Assembly: GCF_030384885.1 (NCBI RefSeq)
Contig: NZ_CP128613.1
DNA from: Escherichia coli
GTDB taxonomy: Bacteria; Pseudomonadota; Gammaproteobacteria; Enterobacterales; Enterobacteriaceae
DNA length: 64,000 nucleotides
Reading direction: 5' to 3' (one strand)
Every line of letters starts with the position of its first letter. Position 1 is the first letter of the stretch. This document shows, piece by piece, positions 53,901 to 56,900 of the stretch. The position numbers are program-made.

Positions 53901-56900
53901 TCTTTGGCAACCTTCTCGAAAGTAATAATCTCTTTCGCCTGCTCTTCTTTCACAGCACGCTTATGCTCACGAGGATCGATACCAGCAGCTACCAGCTTTC
54001 TGGCCTCTTCCCTTTTCTTCCTGGCATCCGCCAGCGAAACATCCGGGTAAACGCCGAACGCCATCAAATGTTGTTTACCACCAAAACGGAAACGAAATCG
54101 CCAATACTTTGAACCGCCAGGTTTTACAAGTAAGGACATGCCGTCGCCGTCAACAAGTGAATACTCTTTCTCCTCAGGTTTCGCAGAGCGAACTTTAGTA
54201 TCCGTTAGGGCCATAATGGTCTTCCTTCCATTGGTATCTCGTGAGTATACAAGCAATATCGAATCGGCAAATATACTCATTAGTATACTCACAAGCCTGT
54301 TGATGTGGGTTGAGTCAGGTTGACTTCAGTTGAGGGGAAAAGCTGGAAAAGCCTTGTGTAGCGCGGATTTCAGGCATAAAAAAAGACCTCAGTTGAGGTC
54401 TATTTACATACTTTTGGTGCCGAAGGCCGGACTCGAACCGGCACGTATTTCTACGGTTGATTTTGAATCAACTGCGTCTACCGATTTCGCCACTTCGGCA
54501 CTGAAGAGGTATGCGGAAAACGTTGTGGATTATACCTGTCACGCGCCACCATGCAAGCGCCAGCTTGCTCCCACCTCGCTAAGTGCTGAAATTTTCAGCA
54601 TTACATACAGCGATGTGCAACCTTTGTCACACTCCAGGCACCACGCCCTACCATGCTCTACACTTCCCAGACAACACCAGAGAAGGACAAAAATATGTCG
54701 ATGATAAAAAGCTATGCCGCAAAAGAGGCTGGCGGCAAACTGGAAGTTTATGAGTACGATCCCGGTGAACTGAAACCACAAGATGTCGAAGTGCAGGTGG
54801 ATTACTGCGGGATCTGCCATTCCGATCTGTCGATGATCGACAACGAATGGGGATTTTCACAATATCCGCTGGTTGCCGGGCATGAGGTGATTGGTCGCGT
54901 GGTGGCGCTCGGGAGCGCCGCGCAGGATAAAGGTTTGCAGGTCGGTCAGCGTGTCGGGATTGGCTGGACGGCGCGTAGCTGCGGGCATTGCGACGCCTGT
55001 ATTAGCGGTAATCAGATCAACTGCGAGCAAGGTGCGGTGCCAACAATTATGAATCGCGGCGGTTTTGCCGAGAAGTTGCGTGCAGACTGGCAATGGGTGA
55101 TCCCACTGCCGGAAAATATCGATATCGAGTCCGCCGGGCCGCTGTTGTGCGGCGGTATCACGGTCTTTAAACCACTGTTGATGCACCATATCACCGCCAC
55201 CAGTCGCGTTGGGGTAATTGGTATTGGCGGGCTGGGGCATATCGCTATAAAACTTCTGCACGCAATGGGATGCGAGGTGACGGCCTTTAGTTCGAATCCG
55301 GCGAAAGAGCAGGAGGTGCTGGCGATGGGTGCCGATAAAGTGGTGAATAGCCGCGATCCGCAGGCTCTGAAAGCACTGGCGGGGCAGTTCGATCTCATTA
55401 TCAATACCGTGAACGTCAGCCTCGACTGGCAGCCCTATTTTGAGGCGCTGACGTATGGCGGTAATTTCCACACCGTCGGTGCGGTTCTCACGCCGTTGCC
55501 GGTTCCGGCCTTTACGCTGATTGCGGGCGATCGCAGTGTCTCTGGCTCTGCTACCGGCACGCCTTATGAGTTGCGTAAGCTGATGCGCTTTGCCGCCCGC
55601 AGCAAGGTTGCGCCGACCACCGAACAGTTCCCAATGTCGAAAATTAACGACGCCATTAAGCATGTACGCGATGGTAAAGCGCGCTACCGAGTGGTCCTGA
55701 AAGCCGACTTCTGATCCCTTTGCCGGGTGCCTGTCGCCCGGCTTTTAAATCTCTTTGGAAGGCGTCTCGCAATCTGCTGAATTTAGCGGTGAAGAGTGCG
55801 CAGCCGTTGCCTATACTCCAGGCAGGAAACTGGAGGATATCTCATGAGCGAACCCCTGTTAATTGCCCGCACGCCGGACACAGAACTGTTTTTGCTGCCG
55901 GGAATGGCTAACCGTCACGGGCTGATTACTGGCGCAACGGGGACGGGTAAAACCGTTACGCTGCAAAAACTGGCAGAGTCATTGTCGGAAATCGGTGTTC
56001 CGGTGTTTATGGCCGATGTGAAAGGTGATTTAACGGGAGTAGCGGAGGAAGGTACATCTTCGGAAAAACTGCTCGCAAGGCTTAAAAATATCGGCGTCAA
56101 TGACTGGCAACCACATGCTAATCCGGTGGTGGTGTGGGATATCTTTGGCGAAAAAGGCCACCCGGTGCGGGCGACGGTTTCAGACCTGGGGCCGCTGTTG
56201 CTGGCGCGACTGTTGAATCTCAACGATGTGCAATCTGGCGTGCTGGATATCATCTTCCGCATTGCTGATGATCAGGGGCTGTTACTGCTCGACTTTAAAG
56301 ATTTGCGGGCGATTACCCAGTACATCGGCGATAACGCCAAATCCTTCCAGAATCAGTACGGTAATATCAGTAGCGCATCGGTTGGTGCCATCCAGCGCGG
56401 GCTGTTATCGCTGGAACAGCAAGGCGCAGCACACTTCTTTGGTGAGCCGATGCTGGATATCAAAGACTGGATGCGTACCGATACCAACGGTAAAGGCGTT
56501 ATCAATATCCTCAGCGCCGAGAAGCTTTATCAGATGCCGAAACTGTACGCCGCCAGCCTGCTGTGGATGCTTTCAGAGTTATATGAACAATTGCCTGAAG
56601 CGGGCGATCTGGAGAAACCAAAACTGGTGTTTTTCTTCGACGAAGCACATCTGCTGTTTAACGATGCGCCACAGGTACTGCTGGATAAGATTGAGCAGGT
56701 GATAAGGCTTATTCGCTCAAAAGGCGTGGGCGTCTGGTTCGTTTCGCAAAACCCGTCGGATATCCCGGATAATGTGCTCGGCCAGCTAGGTAATCGCGTT
56801 CAACACGCTTTGCGGGCTTTTACGCCCAAAGATCAGAAAGCAGTAAAAGCTGCGGCGCAAACCATGCGGGCCAATCCGGCGTTTGATACCGAAAAGACAA

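Follow-up and report, generated by a model that had tools for sequence, protein, structure and literature searches.

The ahr-yjgR locus

The window analysed here is a 64-kb stretch of Escherichia coli DNA in which ahr and yjgR lie directly next to each other (Table 1). Both genes are close to their K-12 counterparts: at the protein level identity is 98.5% for Ahr and 98.4% for YjgR, and at the nucleotide level it is 94.5% for each gene. The ahr reading frame ends with TGA at 55712-55714, and the ATG of yjgR at 55844 is preceded, about 7 nt upstream, by GGAGG. The preliminary description had put the gap between them at about 130 bp; it measures 129 bp, exactly 55715-55843, and in CP027579.1 (E. 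coli 2013C-4282), which is 100% identical here, RefSeq likewise sets ahr and yjgR 129 bp apart.

Table 1. Features in and around the ahr-yjgR spacer (window coordinates)
Feature	Position	Strand	Basis
Integrase ORF beyond leuX	52946-54292	-	
leuX, tRNA-Leu(CAA)	54415-54499	-	ARAGORN
ahr (yjgB), NADPH-dependent aldehyde reductase, 339 aa; left flank	54695-55714	+	K-12 identity and RefSeq
ahr-yjgR spacer, 129 bp; 'empty' allele of the idn site	55715-55843	.	Gene ends and alignment
90-bp segment found only in idn-less genomes, at the position of the 5,087-bp idnK-idnDOTR block of K-12	55715-55804	.	
Terminator-like hairpin GCCGGGTGCCTGTCGCCCGGC, then TTTTAAATCT; presumably the intrinsic terminator of ahr	55722-55752	+	Pattern scan
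Conserved sequence upstream of yjgR, GTTGCCTATACTCCAGGCAGGA...GGAGGA	55805-55843	+	Alignments
yjgR, HerA-like (DUF853) P-loop protein, 500 aa; right flank	55844-57346	+	K-12 identity and RefSeq

The spacer contains a hairpin (55722-55742), which starts 8 nt past the ahr stop and comprises eight pairs, seven of them G-C, and a 5-nt loop with a T run next to it. As judged by its sequence it has the features of a rho-independent terminator, and its presumed role is to terminate ahr. The same hairpin occurs in the spacer of E. albertii, and in that of Citrobacter werkmanii another hairpin takes its position. The last 39 bp before yjgR are common to alleles with and without the idn genes, and to Enterobacter and Leclercia. 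They hold a possible -10 element (TATACT) and the ribosome-binding site. A consensus scan of the spacer found no match to a sigma-70 promoter for yjgR on the + strand; the conservation suggests that the yjgR promoter may lie within these 39 bp.

leuX is 1.2 kb away from the spacer, and its island differed in every genome inspected. In the window, the region beside the integrase gene (51855-52730) contains a pseudogene with an internal stop, derived from a phosphorothioated-DNA-binding restriction endonuclease. Upstream of it lie a gene for a type I restriction-modification S subunit and a 5'-nucleotidase gene, and on the strength of these three genes the leuX island here is rich in defence genes.

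The idn genes of K-12 and their absence from the window

K-12 MG1655 carries, in this order, leuX, ahr, idnK (- strand), idnD, idnO, idnT, idnR (+ strand), yjgR, lptG, lptF and pepA. This agrees with the statement in the preliminary description that idnK and idnDOTR separate ahr from yjgR in K-12; the two genes are not adjacent there, since five idn genes intervene. The five constitute the GntII or L-idonate cluster (b4264-b4268), which occupies the same chromosomal site as the spacer, with leuX-ahr on one side and yjgR-lptG-lptF-pepA on the other. They encode a gluconokinase (idnK), L-idonate 5-dehydrogenase (idnD), 5-keto-D-gluconate reductase (idnO), a GntP-family transporter (idnT) and a LacI-family regulator (idnR), and serve as the subsidiary gluconate system GntII and in L-idonate catabolism. 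In contrast to K-12, the window lacks all five, with a short spacer in their place.

BLAST and local alignment located both breakpoints. Homology to K-12 stops at the ahr stop codon, where window position 55714 corresponds to 3913 of the K-12 locus (L001), and restarts at window position 55805, corresponding to 9001 of that locus and lying 39 bp upstream of the yjgR ATG. Between these points the window has 90 bp (55715-55804) and K-12 has 5,087 bp. Since nothing in the idn allele corresponds to the 90 bp of the empty allele, the two states differ by a replacement, and a plain insertion or deletion does not account for the difference. Remnants of idn genes within the 90 bp were considered and rejected, as the best local alignments to the K-12 idn block, on either strand, scored 21-23, compared with 20.2 ± 2.1 (maximum 29) for shuffled sequence.

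The cluster was likewise confirmed to be absent at this site by tblastn with the five K-12 proteins: idnK, idnD, idnO, idnT and idnR were not found in the 64-kb window, and all matches were at the level of paralogues. These were a GntP-family permease with 40.6% identity to IdnT and Ahr itself with 25.5% identity to IdnD. For idn genes elsewhere we joined the window junction to reverse-complemented K-12 idnD-idnO as a single query. The nearest complete genome, E. coli 2013C-4282 (CP027579.1), ranked first and matched in one place only, so that no idnD or idnO was detected elsewhere on this chromosome. The whole-genome search for idn homologues proposed in the preliminary description is thereby answered in part, for idnD-idnO at megablast sensitivity, and for the nearest complete chromosome rather than the source genome itself.

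2013C-4282, which is 99.98-100% identical to the window, is a cryptic clade I strain (PMC10100065). Comparison of window positions 12019-48684 with CP027579.1 revealed that the window lacks about 12 kb of the leuX island of that genome. Because of this missing segment, the source of the window is a very close relative or variant of 2013C-4282, and not certainly that strain itself. In coordinates of the CP027579.1 segment compared (L090), window position 48383 joins 45426-45732 and then 48678; the genes from radC to WYL and most of the type I restriction genes hsdR/hsdM are gone. Across 54695-61467 of the window, ahr, yjgR, lptG and pepA are 4-5.5% diverged from K-12, O157, O111, O104 and ST1193, whereas these five differ from each other by just 0.2-3% at lptG and pepA. 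A flank divergence of about 5% fits membership of the window's strain in cryptic clade I, like 2013C-4282.

Distribution of the two alleles

We counted the alleles in 5,426 complete E. coli genomes. The ahr-yjgR junction of the window was covered in one piece in 3,212 (59%), and the 90-bp allele-specific segment was found in 3,222. The K-12 idn block was present in 2,055 (38%), at least 99% identical to K-12 in 1,973 of these matching genomes; every copy was chromosomal, and no plasmid-borne idn was seen. About 3% of the genomes had other states of the site. Empty alleles occur in O157:H7, O145:H28 and O111:H8, and the idn carriers include K-12, BL21, O104:H4 and ST1193, with phylogroups A, B1 and B2 represented. 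Most E. coli thus have the empty site, which is distributed over different lineages. These frequencies, together with the proximity of leuX, bear out the earlier suggestion of a second variable locus beside the tRNA gene. With ahr-yjgR adjacency in 3,212 independent complete genomes, misassembly is a very unlikely explanation for it.

The idn-less strains O157:H7, O111:H8 and O145:H28, as well as E. albertii NBRC 107761, share the architecture of the window, with ahr, a 129-bp spacer and yjgR, and their spacers differ from that of the window by point substitutions only. Identity of the window's spacer to those of O157:H7 and O111:H8 is 96-98% (93.8-97.7% with E. albertii included). The window thus belongs to the idn-less allele: its ahr and yjgR are contiguous, and the 129 bp between them are homologous to the spacers of other idn-less Escherichia.

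Some of the rarer states could be inspected individually. UMB200201_11 (L003, 8746-8981) and FCI56 (L005, 7807-7981) keep a short ahr pseudogene fragment by leuX, and yjgR is intact in both. MLI104K2 (L004, 8959-9886) appeared to be an intermediate allele, having a 930-bp spacer with fragments of idnT and idnR, inside which RefSeq calls a 'hypothetical protein'. This spacer contains long homopolymer runs of C, G and T and is probably a consensus or assembly artefact, and we did not use it.

Beyond E. coli, species-representative genomes were scanned with YjgR; the matches listed included few Enterobacteriaceae, and E. fergusonii and the other cryptic clades lay outside the sample. Among the matches listed, ahr and yjgR were adjacent in E. 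albertii, with a spacer 93.8% identical to that of the window, and in C. werkmanii, with a spacer 74.6% identical. The right half of the C. werkmanii spacer is about 79% identical and clearly homologous. Citrobacter sp. FP75 has the order ahr-idnK-idnDOTR-yjgR, with both the left and the right junction as in K-12. In Enterobacter cloacae, Enterobacter sp. Ag1 and Leclercia about 1.9 kb separate ahr from yjgR, and no idn genes are found there. The interval in E. cloacae (L009, 8217-9863) holds a dihydroxyacetone-kinase-like gene of 548 aa on the opposite strand.

Two further loci were found via a search for IdnD homologues. A Salmonella enterica-type contig (L091, 3282-10627) has the order integrase, ahr, idnK, idnDOTR, lptG, lptF and pepA; the idn genes start at the same left junction, but there is no yjgR, and lptG comes directly after idnR. 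In Kluyvera intermedia CP011602 (L092, 7261-12274), idnK-idnDOTR lies in an unrelated context, with a metallophosphatase gene and a chemoreceptor gene on either side. The idnK-idnDOTR module appears to relocate as a unit. The core flanks in Citrobacter FP75, the Salmonella-type contig, Enterobacter and Leclercia are as in the window, and where yjgR is present in these variants it has the conserved GTTGCCTATACTCCA upstream, again as in the window. In contrast, the cargo between ahr and yjgR or lptG varies among these genera, and the window has none. Across the Enterobacteriaceae the interval from ahr to lptG takes at least four forms.

Age of the alleles and proposed exchange between strains

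The idn genes of K-12 and Citrobacter FP75 are 78.5-83.3% identical in nucleotide sequence, and the flanks ahr, yjgR and lptG are 83.6%, 82.2% and 84.9% identical. Between K-12 and the Salmonella-type contig the figures are 77-80% for idn, 80% for ahr and 85-88% for lptG, lptF and pepA. The empty spacers of Escherichia and C. werkmanii have diverged to a comparable degree. The divergence of both alleles between genera is similar to that of the flanking genes. Both therefore look old, of about the age of the genera, and neither looks recently transferred between them. The window very probably represents the idn-less allele of a long-standing presence/absence polymorphism at ahr-yjgR.

Recent deletion of the idn genes, in the strain of the window or in its immediate lineage, cryptic clade I, would also leave an empty site. 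The lineage of the window is indeed a divergent one, some 4-5.5% away from other E. coli in the genes flanking the site, and with a clade I member as nearest strain a lineage-specific event is conceivable. Nevertheless, we regard such a deletion as extremely improbable, because O157:H7, O111:H8 and most complete E. coli genomes have the same empty junction with nearly the same spacer, as do E. albertii and, with a homologous right half, C. werkmanii. Moreover, deleting a block of the K-12 type could not create 90 bp that are missing from the idn allele. The preliminary description was right that idn is absent from the site; this is no strain-specific loss, the empty state being that of the E. 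coli majority and common to E. albertii and C. werkmanii. The converse history, with the empty site ancestral and idn gained recently by the K-12 lineage through horizontal transfer, would make the cluster a K-12-specific islet. Its low G+C content in K-12 (47.3%, compared with 54-56% in the flanks), the unrelated surroundings of the five-gene module in Kluyvera, the lack of idn at the site in Enterobacter and Leclercia, and the near-identity of idn among most E. coli carriers would all be expected from it. However, idn occurs at the same ahr junction in Citrobacter FP75 and Salmonella, diverged (77-83% identity) to an extent that matches the flanks, and within E. coli it is found in phylogroups A, B1 and B2. 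Any acquisition thus predates the split of Escherichia, Citrobacter and Salmonella and was neither recent nor specific to K-12, which makes this history very unlikely.

Instead of being ordinary intergenic sequence, the spacer could also be a functional element in itself, for example an attachment site, a scar left by a mobile element or a small RNA. It is better kept than its flanks, with 93.8% identity to E. albertii compared with about 89% for ahr and yjgR, and 21 nt of it, AATTTAGCGGTGAAGAGTGCG, recur unchanged in C. werkmanii. However, a search of both strands of 55400-56100 against the Rfam 15 families found nothing at E≤1, the idn block is not bounded by repeats, and there is no integrase either among the K-12 idn genes or in the ahr-yjgR gap of the nearest genome. 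The sole structured feature is the terminator-like hairpin right after ahr, and conservation upstream of yjgR is what would be expected of a promoter or regulator site. We therefore consider a separate function of the spacer highly unlikely and retain the reading of an old polymorphism.

As to which of the two alleles came first, an ancient insertion of idn into an ancestral empty site is mildly favoured. It is hinted at by the low G+C content of idn, which is 4.5-8 points below the flanks in three genera, by the location of the Kluyvera module elsewhere and by the site without idn in Enterobacter and Leclercia. Such an insertion is a possible version of the old polymorphism and not a rival to it. 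Two short similarities were set aside as evidence of polarity, both being too short to decide: the match between TTCTCTCGCCATC after idnR in Citrobacter FP75 and TTCTCCTCGCAATC in the empty spacer, and the motif GAATTTA-N20-GTTGCC, which is also common to Enterobacter. We suggest only tentatively that the two alleles have coexisted since before the Escherichia/Citrobacter split, or have been re-exchanged repeatedly between related species, in which case niche selection on the use of L-idonate and 5-ketogluconate might maintain them.

Variable idn content is already known in E. coli and Salmonella. Genes for L-idonate degradation are differentially present among non-O157 STEC, and the pathway has been linked to gut colonisation and is enriched among some HUS-associated STEC (PMC4216125). 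ST131 strains of H30 and H22 lack idnK, which the H41 strain SE15 has (PMC5369007), and L-idonate degradation has been described as 'sporadically distributed throughout the salmonellae' (PMC3158058). The window is thus a case of ordinary accessory-gene polymorphism, with the commoner allele. The site holds no new kind of system; the mild point of interest is that both alleles and their conserved junctions extend across genera. As both alleles look older than the genus, the site offers a convenient small model for metabolic operons kept as polymorphisms, and leuX-ahr-yjgR, as a doubly variable stretch, should be useful for strain typing. The clade I-like strain is predicted to lack the GntII/L-idonate route; it would have no Idn route for L-idonate and 5-ketogluconate, and would be expected to use gluconate via GntI (gntK/gntT/gntU) and GntP.

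In the arrangement that we propose, ahr of the empty allele would end at its own hairpin terminator, with yjgR following 129 bp on under its own upstream region, and in the idn allele 5.1 kb of GntII/L-idonate genes stand in for the first 90 bp of the spacer. Of the hallmarks of an integrative island or mobile element, the idn block shows only the deviating base composition: none of its five genes encodes an integrase or recombinase, and there are no direct or inverted repeats at its boundaries (3914/9000 of the K-12 locus). The lack of boundary repeats and recombinase genes suggests that strains exchange one allele for the other through homologous recombination in the core genes on either side, without mobile-element machinery. 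When idn-carrying E. coli are compared in steps of 300 bp, the divergence is 0-2% within idn and 4-8% in the ahr 3' end and throughout yjgR. Low divergence of idn next to high divergence of the flanks fits recombination breakpoints within the flanks, and under an old polymorphism the hyper-divergent ahr 3' end and yjgR may be the footprint of such recombination. Between K-12 and O104:H4 or ST1193, the divergent stretches span 3514-3813 and 8911-10692 of the K-12 locus, and the spacer between yjgR and lptG contains a large indel.
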